6,465 nucleotides of DNA from a virus (Duplodnaviria; Heunggongvirae; Uroviricota; Caudoviricetes): IMG/VR virus record IMGVR_UViG_2547132415_000015; one strand, written 5' to 3'. Numbering within the stretch: the stretch's first letter is position 1; every line of letters begins with the position of its first letter. Shown here piece by piece: positions 1 to 6,465 of this stretch. A program made the position numbers and the translations under genes. The notes under the pieces are model-generated. The model searched no databases, was not told the DNA's origin, and saw only the letters and a program-made list of their open reading frames with translations.

Positions 1-1612
1 TTTCTGATGATTTCGCTGCCTCTTTTGAGGCCGCCGCATCCCGGGCTGAGGTGGCAGCTTCTGACGCCTTTGTGGTCGCTGCGGATGCAGAAGTGGCTGC
101 AGATTTTTGTGACGCTGCCGCATTCGTTTCTGACGTTTTCGCCGCACCGGCACTGGTAGCTGCCGCGCTTTTTGAGGACTCTGCAGCGGCAGCACTTTTT
201 GATGCTTCAGTGGCCTTTGTTGATGCCGTTCCTGCGCTGGAAGACGCTGACTGAGCCGACGTCGCGGCCTGCCCGGCTGATGTGCTGGCTGCGCGTGCTG
301 AGCCTGCAGCATCAGTCGCATGGGTTACTTCGCTCGTTTTTACTATCGCTGTCGTCACTTGCTCCAGCGAACTGCTCGCTACCTTTCCCGAACGCACAAG
401 CTGGTTTAATACTGCCGCCGCAGCGCCAGTTGTCGAATCAGCCGCATTCCCGGCACGTTGAGCTATATCGGCCAATTGCCCGCTGGTTGTCCCCAACTGA
501 TTTCCGGTAAGAATAAGAGATTTATTAAATTCGTCCTGCTCCTGAGAGCCTTTATAGTAAGCCAGTCCTAAGACCCCAACGGCTGCTGCGGCCAGGGTAA
601 AAGGATTAATTAATCCCAGCACATAAGAACCTACACCTTTGATCGCCGGGCCAATCCCACCGAACATATCTTTTAGCTGGCCGCCCTGCTGCATTAACAC
701 CATAAATGGCGACTGACCAGTGGACAACCCAACAACAATATCCGTCATTTGTGCAGGCAACATGCGCATAGCAAAAGCCGTTTGTTTTGCCGACATTCCG
801 GTTTTGCTTAATTGTGATTGAGTAACCTCAAGCTCACTCCGCATAGCACGAAGTTTTCCAGAAAGCTCCTCATACATTTCAGGAGAAAGCATCCCCTTAG
901 CTTTTGCTTCATTGAGCTGTTTCTGTTGTTCTACCAGACGATTAAAAGCAGTTCCGACAGGATCAAGTTGAGCAATCAGACGTTGCAAAGCAACAACCTG
1001 TTCATCATGCGCTTTTGCTGCTTCTCGCTCTGCCTGAGCCTCTCCGGTAAGCTCTCGCCGTGTTTCCTGTATTTTTCGGCTATAATTCTCAAACTGAGAA
1101 CCATTTATTTTCCCGGATGCAAACGCAGCATTAAGTTCATCATGCTGTTGTTCAAGATTTCTTAGCGCCGCAGCCAGAGGGTCGATCTTGTCCAGCATTC
1201 TTTGAAAGGCCTGAGCCTGCGCTTCCTGCTGGGCGGCAGCAAGTTTTCCGGCCTTCTCGGCTTCTCTCTGCGCTTGCGCAACCCCGCTCAATTCCTCTGT
1301 GGTTTCATTAAGTTTACGGACAAGAAATTCATATTCTTCTTTATCAATAAGCCCTTTATCGAAAAATTTCTTTAATTCAGAATAGCGTCGACCGACAGTA
1401 TCAATTGCGGCACCAACTGGATCAATAGCTGCTTTTAATTTTGCGAGCGCGTTCTTCTCATCTTCTGTTGCCTTAGTCACTTTCCCTGCGCTATTTGCAG
1501 CAGTTTCCCCAGCCTGCGTCATTTTGACTAATGAGGAGGTCAGATTGTCAGCATTATTTTTCGCTCCAGTGCTATCAATAATTATTGCGAGACGCGAGGT
1601 TTGCTCTGCCAT
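1..1612 (-). CDS. Phage tail tape-measure protein, N-terminal 537 codons (5' partial; gene continues beyond window start)
   Basis: ATG at 1612..1610 with an AGGAG Shine-Dalgarno 9 nt upstream (forward 'ctcct' at 1622-1626). My own translation of the minus strand stays open to position 1; this ORF is absent from the supplied track because it has no stop in the window. Residues ~281-320 read '[39 protein letters not shown]', which closely matches the conserved N-proximal block of lambda gpH as I remember it, and is followed by a hydrophobic segment '[14 protein letters not shown]'. It contains three ~75-aa coiled-coil-like repeats and an Ala/Ser-rich C-proximal tract. Confidence 0.8.
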
Positions 1613-1777
1613 TTATTAAAACTCCTGACAACAAAAAAACCACCGCGAAGTGAGTTTCAGGCGACATAATAGTAGATATAGCGATTACGAGGCCACGCAA
1701 TGCTTTTCTCCAGGAGCATCATCGATTTAATTAAAGACACCATCACATCTCTGTAACAGAGTGTACGTAATTAACAA

Positions 1778-2095
1778 CTACACACACTGCTCCTGAAAAT
1801 ACTGGTCATCCAGTGCAAAGATCACTGCTTCAAATTCATCGCGCTCAATCAATACCGGATGAGTGGCTAAATATTCATTTATCTCTGTCAGAGATAAAGG
1901 CAAAGGCACCCCAGCCATTCCAGCATAACGTCGGGCACGGGATATTACCGAATAGGCGTACAACAACTCCTTAAGCACCGGGTCTATTTCTGGTTCCGGT
2001 AACCCGTCTACAGGTTTTAAGTCCTTCATTGGCGTAAACCAGCGTTCTCCACCAATGATAATTTTCTGATTAAGAATAAACATCCATAACCTCAT
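1778..2095 (-). CDS. Hypothetical phage protein, 105 aa, acidic; sits immediately upstream of the tape-measure gene
   Basis: Complete ORF in the supplied track. ATG at 2095..2093 is preceded by 'GGGGGA' about 8 nt upstream. No motif I can assign. The position before the tape-measure gene is where tail assembly chaperones normally sit, but no frameshift partner frame exists. Confidence 0.5.
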   Translation of the reverse strand: MRLWMFILNQKIIIGGERWFTPMKDLKPVDGLPEPEIDPVLKELLYAYSVISRARRYAGMAGVPLPLSLTEINEYLATHPVLIERDEFEAVIFALDDQYFQEQCV

Positions 2096-2143
2096 TCAAT
2101 GCGTCCCCCTGTAGGGCAGTACCACAGGAGAAATAACGGAAAA

Positions 2144-2509
2144 TCAACTAATCGCCTCAGCACTGGCTTTTGCGATCACGGCAGCCGGGGAATTTTTTTT
2201 TCTGGTTATCGTAGGTGCTTCATCTGCTGCGGTAATGCTCAATTGAACCTGGATAATGTCGCTATTACCCCCATCAGGCCATTCACCTGACACCTGAACC
2301 TTCGGGAAACTGAAAGTGTATGCCCCCTCTCCATTCGAAAGCGTGAAGCTGAACGGAACTGTTTCTCCAGTCAGTGTTTTACTCCAGATTTCCCACGCGG
2401 CTTCCCGATTTTCTTTCAGTCGGTTCAGATCAACATCCAGAACGTCAGCGATTTGTTGTGCAGTCATCCGGCACGCTGCCAGAGACTCGACTTTCGAATA
2501 CGGAATCAT
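2144..2509 (-). CDS. Hypothetical phage protein, 121 aa, with an N-terminal helix-turn-helix-like segment
   Basis: Complete ORF in the supplied track. ATG at 2509..2507 is preceded by 'GGGGGTGA' 4-5 nt upstream. Residues 15-35 'MTAQQIADVLDVDLNRLKENR' resemble an HTH DNA-binding motif; the C-terminal half is beta-rich ('FSFTLSNGEGAYTFSFPKVQVSGEW'). The 5' end overlaps the 3' end of the upstream gene by 65 nt. An A9 homopolymer lies 17 codons before the stop. Confidence 0.5.
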   Translation of the reverse strand: MIPYSKVESLAACRMTAQQIADVLDVDLNRLKENREAAWEIWSKTLTGETVPFSFTLSNGEGAYTFSFPKVQVSGEWPDGGNSDIIQVQLSITAADEAPTITRKKNSPAAVIAKASAEAIS

Positions 2510-3377
2510 TTGTCACCCCCATTGATATGCAGGGTGTCTTCTTCCTGTATTTTTCGTGAAGGATTTTTACTGCAGCGTTGTTCCAGGTGACCTGATGGTG
2601 AATGCGTTTATGGCTGGCACCCATCAGTGAGATTTTTACGCACGACGGCGCATACATGACGGAGTAAAAACTTTTAACGTAGGTTCCGGAATCCAGATAC
2701 AGCTCGGTCATTCCGCCGCTGTTTTTCTGCGTCTGTTTCTGCCCTAACTGGACAGCACCGATCGTCATAAACAATTCACCACAGCGACCGAGATTCGTGT
2801 ACGTATTCACATCCTCGTTAATGCGCCCCATGAATGAGAACGGTCGATCAACCGAACAGATAAAGCTGTTCATTGCCTTGCGTTTCACCCACGAAGCATG
2901 GCCGCCATTGTCACCAAGAAAATCCCCTCCCTGCGACATAGCGATGGAAAGAGCAGGTATTGATTCGTAGTACGCCAGCATTTCAGAAAGGATCGCATCC
3001 AGTTTCCTTATCGGAAAATAGGCCTGGTCATAGTTGCGATCCACCCGAAACTGGAACTCGTGATAATCATCATCGAGCTGAATGAAGTATTTACACCCGA
3101 CCAGTTTTGCCTGGTCGAAACAGGCATTACGGGCGTAAAAAATTGAGCGGCGGTCACAGAAATTATCGGCTTCGTCAAAACGACTGGCGATATCGGCTTT
3201 GGAAAACACCAGCACCTGTTCACCAAATTCAGCCATGTACTGATGCCGTGTCTTATCTTCATCATCAACAACGATAAAAATTTTCCCGGTATAGCCAGCA
3301 CGACGCAACGTCCGGTAAGTCAGAACTTTGTCCGGTCGCCCGTGAGTCAGAATAAAGGCGCAAAAATCATCACGCAT
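2445..3377 (-). CDS. Predicted nucleotide-sugar glycosyltransferase-like protein (GT-A fold, GT2-like motifs), ~310 aa, no predicted membrane anchor
   Basis: The track ORF is 2445..3398, but the first seven codons (MVVRRRN) are just the purine-rich ribosome-binding site 'GAGGAGGAGGAA' read in another frame. The more likely start is the ATG at 3377..3375, which overlaps the upstream stop as ATGCGTGA. Numbering from the track ORF start at 3398: 'AFILTHGRPD' (res 14-23), 'KIFIVVDDED' (res 38-48), 'ARNACFDQAKLVGCKYFIQLDDDY' (res 88-112, a DxD motif; the DDD codons are at 3074-3066) and a later 'RINEDVN', together resembling the GT-A/GT2 signature layout. No PP-loop (SGGKDS) and no methyltransferase motifs (DPPY, FxGxG) were seen. 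Confidence 0.6.
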   Translation of the reverse strand: MRDDFCAFILTHGRPDKVLTYRTLRRAGYTGKIFIVVDDEDKTRHQYMAEFGEQVLVFSKADIASRFDEADNFCDRRSIFYARNACFDQAKLVGCKYFIQLDDDYHEFQFRVDRNYDQAYFPIRKLDAILSEMLAYYESIPALSIAMSQGGDFLGDNGGHASWVKRKAMNSFICSVDRPFSFMGRINEDVNTYTNLGRCGELFMTIGAVQLGQKQTQKNSGGMTELYLDSGTYVKSFYSVMYAPSCVKISLMGASHKRIHHQVTWNNAAVKILHEKYRKKTPCISMGVTNDSVFESRVSGSVPDDCTTNR

Positions 3378-4161
3378 ATTCCTCCTCCTCACCACCATGC
3401 ATGATCTCCACCATGCGCTGCGTCATCCGGACAAATCCATTTTCAATAGCCTGCTGATAATCAATGATCACCAGCGCCGACTCCTCGAAAAAACACTGAA
3501 TTTCAGCGGGGGCGTGAGCGTAATAGTCCGCAATTCTGCTGAAATTAAACACCGTGTGACGTTCTGCCGCACACAGGAGGAATTTCTCAATATCAGGCTC
3601 AAGGGACGCCGAACGTATCCGGCTGATCAGCTCCTGAGTTTTCGTATCGTCGTACAGTTCACTGATATCCGGTTTACCGCCCGACGGCTCATAAACAGGC
3701 GTATCAATTTTCGTCGTATACGGCTCCTCCTCATTTCCTGTACCGGGCAAAACATCCGTCAACAGTTCATCAATTTCTGTCGGGATGAAGCCTGTCAGGG
3801 AGACATCAAAATCAGCATTGATTAGGTCCGACAGCTCCATCCGCAACAGATCTTCATCCCAGCCAGCATTCATCGGCAGGCGATTATCTGCCAGGCGGTA
3901 CGCCTTTTTCTGCTCATCCGTCAGGCCAGACAGAACAATGACCGGAACAGAATCCATTTTGAGCATTTCAGCCGCCATAACACGACCGTGACCCGCAATA
4001 ATTTCGCCCTTTTCGTCAATCAGCACCGGATTAGTCCAGCCGAATTGCTTAATACTTTCTTCCAGTTGTGCCACCTGCTCAGTACTGTGCGTCCTGGCGT
4101 TGTGCGCATACGGTGACAATTCTTGTAATGGGCGATAGACTATCTTTAATTTCTCGCTCAT
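3370..4161 (-). CDS. ParB-like N-terminal domain (ParB/Srx superfamily) protein, 263 aa
   Basis: Complete ORF. The N-terminal ~95 aa have the ParB N-domain pattern: 'VYRPLQELSPYAHNAR', 'IKQFGWTNPVLIDEKGEIIAGHGR' (a GxxR arginine motif at res 57-60) and 'VPVIVLSGLTDEQKKAYRLADN'. The C-terminal ~160 aa are acidic and end in 'GGEEEEYA'. A weak 'AAGG' precedes the ATG. From memory this corresponds to the ynaK position of E. coli K-12 Rac, but I cannot verify that here. Confidence 0.8.
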   Translation of the reverse strand: MSEKLKIVYRPLQELSPYAHNARTHSTEQVAQLEESIKQFGWTNPVLIDEKGEIIAGHGRVMAAEMLKMDSVPVIVLSGLTDEQKKAYRLADNRLPMNAGWDEDLLRMELSDLINADFDVSLTGFIPTEIDELLTDVLPGTGNEEEPYTTKIDTPVYEPSGGKPDISELYDDTKTQELISRIRSASLEPDIEKFLLCAAERHTVFNFSRIADYYAHAPAEIQCFFEESALVIIDYQQAIENGFVRMTQRMVEIMHGGEEEEYA

Positions 4162-4178
4162 ACAGCCTTGCTTTATGA

Positions 4179-4212
4179 ATAAAACGCACCCCAGCAGCCA
4201 GTGCTACTGGGG
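4179..4212 (-). terminator. Putative rho-independent terminator downstream of trkG (minus strand)
   Basis: On the minus strand, 'CCCCAGTAGC-actg-GCTGCTGGGG' forms a 10-bp stem with one mismatch and a 4-nt loop (forward 4189-4212), followed immediately by the U-rich 'GCGTTTTATT' (forward 4188-4179). It lies 87 nt after the trkG stop and 18 nt before the ParB-like ATG. Confidence 0.5.
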
Positions 4213-4298
4213 ACGGAGGTGTTGCTGGTAAAGTTAGGTATTGGATCAATGAGTGAGTCAACATAATATTAAACTCACAATTATAAATCAGCCATATA

Positions 4299-5756
4299 TT
4301 AGGAGCGCCAAAAAAAACCTGAAAACAATATAATAACAGGATAAATTTCAAGGCGACCAAGAATCATAGCTATGCACATTAAACATTTTGCAATGTCATT
4401 AAGCACTCCGAATGACGATGCAGTAGCCCCAAAACCTAATCCCATATTATTAATACATGCAGCCACTGTTGCAAATGATGTAAGAAAATCATATCCCATA
4501 CCATTTAACACCAGTATAAAAAACACCGTGAAGAGAGTATAAAGAAAAAAGAAACTCCATACAGACCTCATTACACGATCTGTAACTATCTTCCCTCCTA
4601 CATTTACACTCAACAACGCTCTGGGATGAGAAAGCTGATTTATCTCGTGTTTGCTTTGTTTGAAAAGTATAAGAAATCGAAGTGACTTAATTCCACCACA
4701 AGTTGAACCTATACATCCCCCAAAGAAACTTGACAACAGCAAAAACACTATCGTGTGCGTGGGCCAACTTGCATAATCCTGCGTAGCTAAACCATTATCA
4801 GTGAGCATGGAGCTGGCAAGAAAAAACGAATGAATAAAACTTCCATGCAAGTCATACATACCTATATGCCAGACCTGGAAAGAGGTAACAATGATCACCC
4901 CTAAGGCTATTAACAGAAAGAAACGAAGTTCAATATCTCTGATTAAAGGTTTTATCGTTTTCCTGCTAATAACAATATACCAAAGAGTGAAGTTGAAAGC
5001 CGATAGCAGGGAAAAAGAACCAGCCACCAGCTCAACCAAATAGTTATTAAAATATCCGATACTCTCGCTATGAGTTGAGAAACCACCAAGCGAAACTGTG
5101 GAAATCCCGTGACAAATAGCATCAAACAAAGGCATTCCTGCAAGTCTATAACAGACAATACAAGCAATACCTAATAAAGAATAAGTTATCCACAGTGTCC
5201 GTGACGTATCGGCCAGGCGGGGAGTGAGTTTGTCATCCTTAAATGGCCCCGGCATTTCTGACTGATAAAGCTTTGCACCACCAATACCCAATAATGGCAA
5301 TACAGCAACCGCCAGAACAATAACTCCTAAACCACCTATAAAATTTAACTGTGACCGATAGTACAAATATGCCCGAGGTAATGAACTAACATCATCAATT
5401 ACAGTTGCTCCTGTTGTTGTTATTCCAGAAACCCCTTCAAACAGAGCATCAATGAACGTTAAATTAAGTTCTGAGTCAATCCATAAAGGGAATGCACTAA
5501 TAACAGAAAACAAAATCCAAAACATTACAATTATAATAAACCCATCACGGGTACGTAATTGAATGCCAGATTTCTTAGTTGTATACCACGCTCCGCCACC
5601 AATGCAAAAAAATATAACGAAAGTTATTAAGAAAACGAACAGGCTTTTTTCTTTATAAAACAATGCTACAACCATTGGTGGCAACATTGAAAGACTATAG
5701 AGCCAAACCAGGAACCCACACATATGAGTAACAACTCTTACATGAGATGTATTCAT
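4299..5756 (-). CDS. trkG: TrkH/TrkG-family potassium uptake membrane protein (prophage moron), 485 aa
   Basis: Polytopic membrane protein with repeated selectivity-filter-like glycine motifs ('TTTGATV', 'GGLGV', 'SLGGFS', 'GSTCGG', 'NMGLGFG') typical of TrkH/KtrB. I recognise the translation from 'MNTSHVRVVTHMCGF...' as E. coli Rac prophage TrkG from memory. The track ORF begins at a TTG at 5774; the ATG at 5756 gives the 485-aa product. The gene is visibly AT-rich compared with its neighbours. Confidence 0.9.
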   Translation of the reverse strand: MNTSHVRVVTHMCGFLVWLYSLSMLPPMVVALFYKEKSLFVFLITFVIFFCIGGGAWYTTKKSGIQLRTRDGFIIIVMFWILFSVISAFPLWIDSELNLTFIDALFEGVSGITTTGATVIDDVSSLPRAYLYYRSQLNFIGGLGVIVLAVAVLPLLGIGGAKLYQSEMPGPFKDDKLTPRLADTSRTLWITYSLLGIACIVCYRLAGMPLFDAICHGISTVSLGGFSTHSESIGYFNNYLVELVAGSFSLLSAFNFTLWYIVISRKTIKPLIRDIELRFFLLIALGVIIVTSFQVWHIGMYDLHGSFIHSFFLASSMLTDNGLATQDYASWPTHTIVFLLLSSFFGGCIGSTCGGIKSLRFLILFKQSKHEINQLSHPRALLSVNVGGKIVTDRVMRSVWSFFFLYTLFTVFFILVLNGMGYDFLTSFATVAACINNMGLGFGATASSFGVLNDIAKCLMCIAMILGRLEIYPVIILFSGFFWRS

Positions 5757-5830
5757 ATCTAAATATTCTTTCAATTATAACCACCTTGCTGCAATATTAT
5801 GATTATACTGTATAAAATTTAACTCCTCTT
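5757..5830 (-). promoter_or_regulatory. AT-rich putative promoter region for trkG
   Basis: Two minus-strand TATAAT hexamers (forward 5779-5774 and 5807-5802) lie upstream of the trkG ATG, but neither has a well-spaced -35 element (the TTGCAG at 5794-5789 is only 9 nt from the proximal -10). Call rests on AT-richness and the -10 matches only. Confidence 0.2.
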
Positions 5831-5893
5831 AGATCTTACTTCACTGTTCCTTATGAAACAATCATCAAAATGAATCATATTGTAGTTAAGATT

Positions 5894-6358
5894 TTACTTT
5901 AAACACTGCTCGGTTATGTATTGCTGAGCACCTTCAAGTTGGGCCTGCATCATTACCAGTCGTTCCCGGAGGGTGAAATAATCCCGTTCAGCGGTGTCTG
6001 CCAGTCGGGGGGAGGCTGCATTATCCACGCCGGAGGCCGTGGTGGCTTCACGCACTGACTGACAGACTGCTTTGATGTGCAACCGACGACGACCAGCGGC
6101 AACATCATCACGCAGAGCATCATTTTCAGCTTTCGCATCAGCTAACTCCTTCGTGTATTTTGCATCGAGCGCAGCAACATCACGCTGACGCATCTGCATG
6201 TCAGTAATTGCCGCGTTCGCTAGCTTCAGTTCTCTGGCATTTTTGTCGCGCTGGGCTTTGTAGGCGATTGCGTTATCACGGTAATGATTGACCGCCCATG
6301 ACAGGCTGACGATGATGCAGATAATCAGAGCGGATATAATCGCGGTTACTCTGCTCAC
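5894..6358 (-). CDS. Rz: Rz-family i-spanin (inner-membrane spanin subunit)
   Basis: The translation '[28 protein letters not shown]...[27 protein letters not shown]...' is near-identical to lambda Rz / E. coli RzpD as I remember them: N-terminal transmembrane segment followed by a coiled-coil periplasmic domain. Favoured start is the GTG at 6358..6356, preceded by 'GGGGG' 6 nt upstream and overlapping the lysozyme stop as GTGA; the track uses an upstream in-frame GTG at 6370. Confidence 0.85.
5953..6138 (-). CDS. Rz1: Rz1-family o-spanin (outer-membrane lipoprotein), embedded in a different frame within Rz
   Basis: '[20 protein letters not shown]|TSKQ...' has a lipoprotein signal with lipobox 'VVGC' and a proline-rich mature part ('[18 protein letters not shown]'), matching lambda Rz1 from memory. 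ATG at 6138 is preceded by 'AAGGAG' 7 nt upstream. The ORF lies entirely inside the Rz coding region. Confidence 0.85.
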
Positions 6359-6465
6359 TGTTGCCCCCACAAACAGACTTCACGCTCAATCTCACGACGA
6401 GTCATCAGGCCTTTCCATTGCTTACCGCCAGCGTATGCCCAGCGACGTAGCTGGTCACATGCGCC
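6355..6465 (-). CDS. Phage lysozyme / endolysin (T4-type, GH24-like), C-terminal 36 codons (3' partial; gene starts beyond window end)
   Basis: Minus-strand translation from the window edge reads '[36 protein letters not shown]' with TGA at 6357..6355. This matches the C-terminus of the lambdoid-prophage lysozymes of E. coli (RrrD-type) as I remember it. It sits immediately upstream of Rz/Rz1, the canonical lysis-cassette order. Confidence 0.75.

Follow-up and report, generated by a model that had tools for sequence, protein, structure and literature searches.

A 121-codon open reading frame in a degraded Escherichia coli Rac prophage is very probably an in-frame deletion scar between a small gene upstream of terS and the tail tube gene

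Results

The 121-codon open reading frame (ORF) described here lies in a stretch of prophage DNA of 6,465 nucleotides, called the window below. Sequence comparison identifies it, almost certainly, as the scar of a microhomology-mediated illegitimate deletion during the decay of an E. coli Rac prophage; the deletion fortuitously left the two broken genes in frame. The original prediction had considered either a deletion-junction chimera or a small DNA-binding partner of a ParB/glycosyltransferase module; the fusion was seen directly when the sequence was compared base by base with an intact Rac-type prophage. The ORF is most likely a non-functional, pseudogene-like remnant, judging from the truncation of its domains.

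The ORF and its surroundings in the window

The ORF occupies positions 2144-2509 on the minus strand, stop codon included. Its ATG, at 2509, is preceded at a distance of 3 nt by the Shine-Dalgarno-like sequence GGGGGTGA (2513-2520, minus strand), and the minus-strand sequence immediately 5' of the ATG, GGGGGTGAcaaATG, contains a strong Shine-Dalgarno. The beginning of the ORF overlaps by 65 nt (2445-2509, minus strand) the upstream neighbouring gene, which encodes a TET-associated (TAGT-type) glycosyltransferase (GT; 2445-3398, minus strand; Pfam PF20691, 1.4e-34; phrog_842, 6e-104) and remains intact across the deletion. The ORF listing and a reading of the sequence thus confirmed the 121-aa ORF, its ATG with a good ribosome-binding site and the overlap with GT, all of which had been predicted. 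Promoter and terminator searches revealed nothing promoter-like that was specific to this ORF. With its intact start, its strong Shine-Dalgarno and its coupling to GT, the ORF could be translated whenever the ParB-GT genes are transcribed.

The window represents the cryptic E. coli prophage Rac in degraded form, and the genes listed in it are all on the minus strand: Rz/Rz1 (5894-6370), trkG (4299-5774), a ParB (ynaK-type) gene of 263 aa (3370-4161), and further on a remnant of the tail assembly chaperone gene and a fragment of the tape-measure gene. The ParB-like protein (263 aa, 3370-4161, minus strand) and the TAGT-family protein (310/317 aa, 2445-3398, minus strand) are full length, and the corresponding ParB in K-12 is a stub of 87 aa (ynaK). 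In addition, phage DNA methyltransferase profiles match the ParB-like protein with their N-terminal part (phrog_498; PADLOC MTase_II, 1e-38, residues 10-144).

The intact reference used for comparison was the Rac-type prophage of E. coli LHM10-1 (NZ_CP037903.1, locus L005). Its gene order is trkG, ParB, GT, a small hypothetical gene (69 aa in RefSeq, WP_000126788.1; 83 aa from an upstream ATG), terS (364 aa), terL, a DUF4055 portal gene, a minor head gene, a DUF6651 gene, a P22-type major capsid gene, four small genes, the tail terminator gene, a 320-aa tail tube gene, ydaY and the tape-measure gene. The same order is found in the phage record ON470595.1.

Two other rearrangements were observed in the window. 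Around positions 324-326 (parts 1-326 and 324-1514) the tape-measure fragment is joined to sequence from the stfR/lom region, with 93-96% identity to other Rac copies; this join is shared with contig L011. Positions 1778-2095 (minus strand) hold a second in-frame junction ORF, of 105 aa, with its join at 2000-2001. It corresponds to a 450-bp deletion (L005 687-1136) at a 2-bp microhomology, TA, by which most of ydaY (a gpG-like tail assembly chaperone gene) is gone; it consists of codons 1-32 of the long ydaY frame and of the last 72 codons of the downstream 'T-like' extension, which is in a different frame. L011 and strain AR_0061, two carriers of the junction present in the 121-codon ORF, still have ydaY.

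Deletion junction A

Window positions 2000-2403 are identical to L005 1137-1540 (100% over 404 bp, blastn), and window positions 2400-6465 are collinear with L005 11175-15239 (99.4%, blastn). Compared with L005, 9,634 bp are absent from the window, at a single sharp breakpoint. The two blastn segments overlap by 4 bp at positions 2400-2403 (junction A), and in a three-way comparison the parental sequences shared GCTT alone at the break, with no further similarity on either side of it.

On the minus strand, the 5' segment of the ORF (2400-2509) corresponds, by collinearity with L005 and by its phrog_309 match, to codons 1-37 of the gene for the 83-aa protein, which is helical and plausibly helix-turn-helix (HTH)-like; the 3' segment (2144-2403) corresponds, by identity with L005, to codons 236-320 and the stop codon of the 320-aa tail tube gene (Phage_tube_2). 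The first 37 residues of the ORF and of the 83-aa protein are identical (MIPYSKVESLAACRMTAQQIADVLDVDLNRLKENREA/MTDFYAAIRKGRAKGEAELR), ORF residues 37-121 are tube residues 236-320 (...TLSWSKA/AWEIWSKTLTGETVPF), and the peptide across the junction is LKENREAAWEIWSK. The missing segment comprises codons 38-83 of the 83-aa gene, all genes from terS through the tail terminator, and tube codons 1-235. The RefSeq annotation of strain AR_0061 describes the 3' part as 'phage tail tube protein, incomplete, missing N-terminus'.

Profile searches gave the same division. PHROG searches with the 121-aa protein matched phrog_309, 'terminase small subunit', over residues 3-37 (7.8e-07) and phrog_290, tail protein, over residues 37-120 (1.1e-23). 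The two halves match different families, and the boundary between them coincides with the junction residue; both families match the respective intact parents over their full length. Pfam assigned no family to the 121-aa ORF (the gathering score of PF18906 was not reached), NCBIfam gave a single sub-threshold, meaningless match, and PADLOC gave none; no named family or defence role is supported for the ORF.

Three other accounts of the junction were considered and discarded. Neither the 65-nt overlap nor the upstream ATG arose through the deletion, as both are identical in intact prophages (in L005, the 83-aa ORF begins at 11284 and GT finishes at 11220, again overlapping by 65 nt) and residues 1-14 are conserved across genera; the ribosome-binding site is likewise native to the 83-aa gene, intact relatives having the same sequence ahead of the start. 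The N-terminus of the ORF is not a piece of the 364-aa terS product; it derives from the separate small gene located between GT and terS. Finally, an insertion of the 9.6-kb segment into an ancestral 121-aa gene is in practice excluded, since both parents have full-length homologues across genera.

We propose that illegitimate recombination at the 4-bp GCTT, a mechanism suggested by the microhomology, removed the 9,634 bp between codon 37 of the 83-aa gene and tube codon 236. The cargo lost with them was terS, terL and the genes for the portal, scaffold, capsid, head-tail connector and tail terminator. The broken genes were joined in frame by chance into a 121-codon ORF, with the start, the ribosome-binding site and the overlap with GT provided by the 5' parent and the stop codon by the tube gene. 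A deletion that joins two co-oriented genes produces an in-frame fusion about one third of the time, and the open frame across the ORF is therefore statistically unremarkable. A fusion by site-specific or homologous recombination, between repeats or through an IS element, might be considered since IS1, IS3 and IS5 are common in other Rac copies; it is very unlikely, however, as the junction contains neither IS sequence nor IS scar, and the 4 bp are all that the parents have in common, with no extended similarity.

The 5' parent is a small gene that precedes terS

The 83-aa gene (L005 11033-11284, minus strand) has its start region at window positions 2400-2509. Homologues of 83-90 aa were found in Escherichia, Citrobacter, Salmonella, Serratia, Klebsiella, Hafnia, Erwinia and Buttiauxella. 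In an alignment of 41 sequences, residues M1, K6, E8, L10, A11, A12, C13 and R14 were invariant or nearly so. This block precedes Met15, the start used by RefSeq for the 69-aa product (WP_000126788.1), and a Shine-Dalgarno precedes the upstream ATG. Because near-invariant residues lie upstream of Met15, we consider the ATG at window position 2509 to be the true start; the gene is probably mis-started in RefSeq, and its real product would be of 83 aa.

Across Enterobacterales, conservation of the 83-aa family extends from end to end, and the family's most conserved half is IRKGRAKGEAELR...GD..A..ELL. That half is missing from the chimera, in which residues 38-83 are lost, and the ORF is not a full-length member of the family. 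The 83-aa protein matched phrog_309 over residues 3-77 (8.3e-23). Its sole distant phage match, with 35% identity, was a 129-aa protein named 'terS' and encoded directly upstream of terL in Pasteurella phage Pmp13.

The N-terminal third of the ORF had been predicted to be HTH-like, and in the AF2 model of its parent, built from the family alignment (pLDDT 91.8), this part is helical: residues 4-12, 17-23 and 28-31 form helices, and after them come a long helix (35-65) and a terminal helix (69-82). The motif TAQQIADVLDVDLNRL corresponds to ORF residues 16-31. Foldseek searches of the PDB with this model gave no match below E = 1; the best ones, all with E of about 1 or above, were phage protein 2ao9, the Sf6 small terminase and HTH domains of the LuxR/GerE type. 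A PDB sequence search with the 83-aa protein returned spurious low-score repeat matches only, and Pfam detected no HTH family in it. As no PDB match was significant, the likeness to terS and HTH proteins rests on phrog_309 and on the Pasteurella protein rather than on structure, and the model makes an HTH-like nature of the 83-aa protein plausible. The 37 residues retained in the ORF hold the whole predicted tri-helix, which could in principle fold and bind DNA.

The genomic context of the 83-aa gene was compared in loci L019-L023 (gene at about position 5001), L005 and L014. The gene directly precedes a Terminase_2 terS in intact prophages of E. coli, Serratia and Salmonella and in another Enterobacterales locus examined. 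Upstream of this pair are ParB_N and TAGT genes in E. coli, Serratia and Salmonella; L023 has instead a DAM-like/GNAT-phage-like gene and a gene of 234 aa. These arrangements suggest that the pair formed by the 83-88 aa gene and terS lies downstream of a variable cassette of interchangeable DNA-modification modules heading the packaging operon. Because ParB/GT is replaced in L023, the constant partner of the 83-aa protein is terS and not ParB/GT. The earlier proposal of a small DNA-binding partner of the ParB/GT module would at most fit the intact 83-aa parent, and the constant neighbour of that parent is the Terminase_2 terS. The window has lost terS, and the chimera is not upstream of any terS.

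The 3' parent is the tail tube gene

The C-terminal two-thirds of the ORF had been described as beta-rich and reminiscent of tail proteins; this held, as this part is identical to residues 236-320 of a Phage_tube_2 tail tube protein. The tube gene (L005 1281-2243, minus strand) encodes 320 aa and matches Pfam Phage_tube_2 (PF18906) over residues 4-293 (7.3e-32). Its relatives are 306-320 aa long, or about 382-391 aa when a Big_2 domain is added at the C-terminus; the Big_2-bearing relatives are many, in Klebsiella, Raoultella and Citrobacter. By sequence, the tube protein matched PDB entry 8xan (2.1e-12, phmmer). The AF2 model of the tube protein had a pLDDT of 63, with 70-80 in the C-terminal third, and its Foldseek matches, with values ranging up to 1e-6, included 8xan (1.9e-15), the P74-26 tail tube (8ed0) and T5 pb6 (5ngj). 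For the Rac-type tube the prediction is thus a protein of two tube subdomains, as in T5 pb6, P74-26 and 8xan. The part kept in the ORF comprises the helix 235-245, four strands and a low-confidence tail, and according to the model would be an incomplete second subdomain; it lacks strands one to three of that subdomain, and nothing of the first subdomain is present.

Neither of the two fragments present in the ORF is a complete folding or assembly unit. A product, if made, would combine the three short helices of the 83-aa protein, deprived of the conserved long-helix half, with what is left of the second tube subdomain, its last helix and four strands.

Distribution and further decay of the fusion

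Full-length homologues, such as a protein conserved as a single unit in many phages would have, were searched for in 5.8 billion proteins; none was found beyond near-identical E. coli copies with the same junction. The other protein matches covered the first 37-48 residues or so, or the tube part, or the same junction further shortened, and the best non-identical match (72% query coverage) was a further truncation at the same junction. The exact 121-aa protein was present on seven E. coli contigs, all with the Rac neighbours trkG, ParB and TAGT, and with intR/ttcA where the contig reaches that far. Downstream deletions differ among the seven contigs, and the 121-aa form is 100% conserved in them, which fits a recent origin and is also compatible with retention.

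A 146-nt query spanning the junction had a full match in one of 5,426 complete E. coli genomes, that of AR_0061 (NZ_CP020058.1), and one or both halves of the query were matched separately in 904 complete E. coli genomes. Most of the region of the tube 3' end and the tail assembly chaperone was present in 688 complete E. coli genomes. The whole window had no full-length match in the complete-genome collection, as might be expected of a chimeric contig produced by assembly or sequencing. Such an artefact is nevertheless extremely improbable, given that an identical junction is present in the independent complete genome of AR_0061 and that at least six more independent assemblies contain it, including one Logan contig 100% identical to window positions 613-2657.

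The scar itself continues to decay. Variants with the same junction and without the C-terminus were found with lengths of 94 aa (P0001), 80 aa (P0033) and 96 aa (P0038), and together these shortened variants are on more contigs than the intact 121-aa form. In the four P0001 loci examined, the downstream sequence was deleted as far as pinR or host genes. Other deletions have affected the same module: in K-12 Rac, ParB codon ~87 is joined to the ydaY region, and P0011, a GT::tube fusion, results from another deletion of the head module. These junctions indicate that, in different E. coli lineages, the head module was deleted independently three times or more.

Several short E. coli ORFs (P0011, P0086 and P0096-P0099) are separate fusions or truncations of the 83-aa gene or of the tube 3' end; GT::tube is one of the fusions, and others bring in a transposase HTH or Lom fragments. 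Many independent breaks appear to have occurred in the Rac late region.

Could the ORF encode a genuine, selected DNA-binding protein that works with ParB and the glycosyltransferase, with an N-terminal HTH and a functional beta-rich C-terminus? Its native ribosome-binding site and translational coupling to GT, the HTH-like tri-helix that it has kept and the intact 121-aa form on seven contigs are compatible with this proposal. We nonetheless consider it very unlikely, as its two halves are pieces of two different genes, each conserved on its own, with 9.6 kb between them in intact relatives. In addition, divergent full-length homologues were absent from the 5.8-billion-protein search, the fusion was found in just one of the 5,426 complete genomes, and it has been shortened again in more contigs than keep the full form. 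The intact parent pairs with terS, ParB/GT being swapped for the DAM-like/GNAT module in L023, and the ORF has no PADLOC, NCBIfam or Pfam family. The junction event is recent and selection on it cannot be measured (dN/dS is not computable), because the 404-bp segment that includes the tube part is 100% identical to the intact gene.

Discussion

We describe an ORF that is an ordinary, already understood kind of feature, a product of prophage decay. Function of the 121-aa protein is unlikely because the 83-aa parent contributes nothing of its conserved half and the tube has lost three quarters of its length, and its lack of function is suggested by the truncation of both domains together with the decay that continues in other strains. 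Annotations should treat the ORF as a pseudogene-like scar and not as a new protein of the HTH or tail type. Junction A provides a clean case, resolved to the base, of the microhomology-mediated decay of a prophage structural module. A search of the literature on Rac, ynaK and ydaY yielded nothing bearing on this junction.

A use for the remnant can be imagined, in which the fusion protein, translated from its intact ribosome-binding site, would act as a dominant-negative decoy against superinfecting Rac-type phages. The orphan HTH tri-helix might sit on the packaging-recognition site or on the terS partner; alternatively, growing tail tubes might be capped by the tube fragment. The scar would then have been co-opted as a superinfection-exclusion factor. 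We regard this as highly improbable, given the rarity of the fusion, its additional shortening elsewhere and the PADLOC and NCBIfam scans, which supplied no family, and the interpretation of the ORF as a non-functional deletion scar is preferred.

A close known case is the ynaK-ydaY region of K-12 Rac. It is the same prophage, with the same late-region neighbours (rzpR/rzoR, trkG and a ynaK-type ParB; intR/ttcA in the contigs that carry the fusion), and there also a large deletion took out packaging and head genes, with truncated ORFs remaining at its scar. The K-12 deletion differs in that it runs from inside ParB (ynaK, 87 aa) to upstream of ydaY, so that GT, the 83-aa gene and the whole tube gene are gone, whereas in the window the deletion runs from the 83-aa gene to inside the tube gene, and ParB (263 aa) and GT are intact. 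The two deletions are independent events.

The chimera resembles each of its parental families in part. Its residues 1-37 are identical to those of the terS-associated 83-88 aa family (WP_000126788.1; phrog_309), with the same start, ribosome-binding site and overlap with GT, but it lacks residues 38-83, which include the long helix, the terminal helix and IRKGRAKGEAELR...GD, and no terS follows it. Similarly, ORF residues 37-121 are the C-terminal 85 residues of a Rac tube that matches the Phage_tube_2 tubes (8xan, the major tail protein of SH-Ab15497; P74-26, 8ed0; T5 pb6, 5ngj), but unlike these tubes the ORF holds only about a quarter of the protein.
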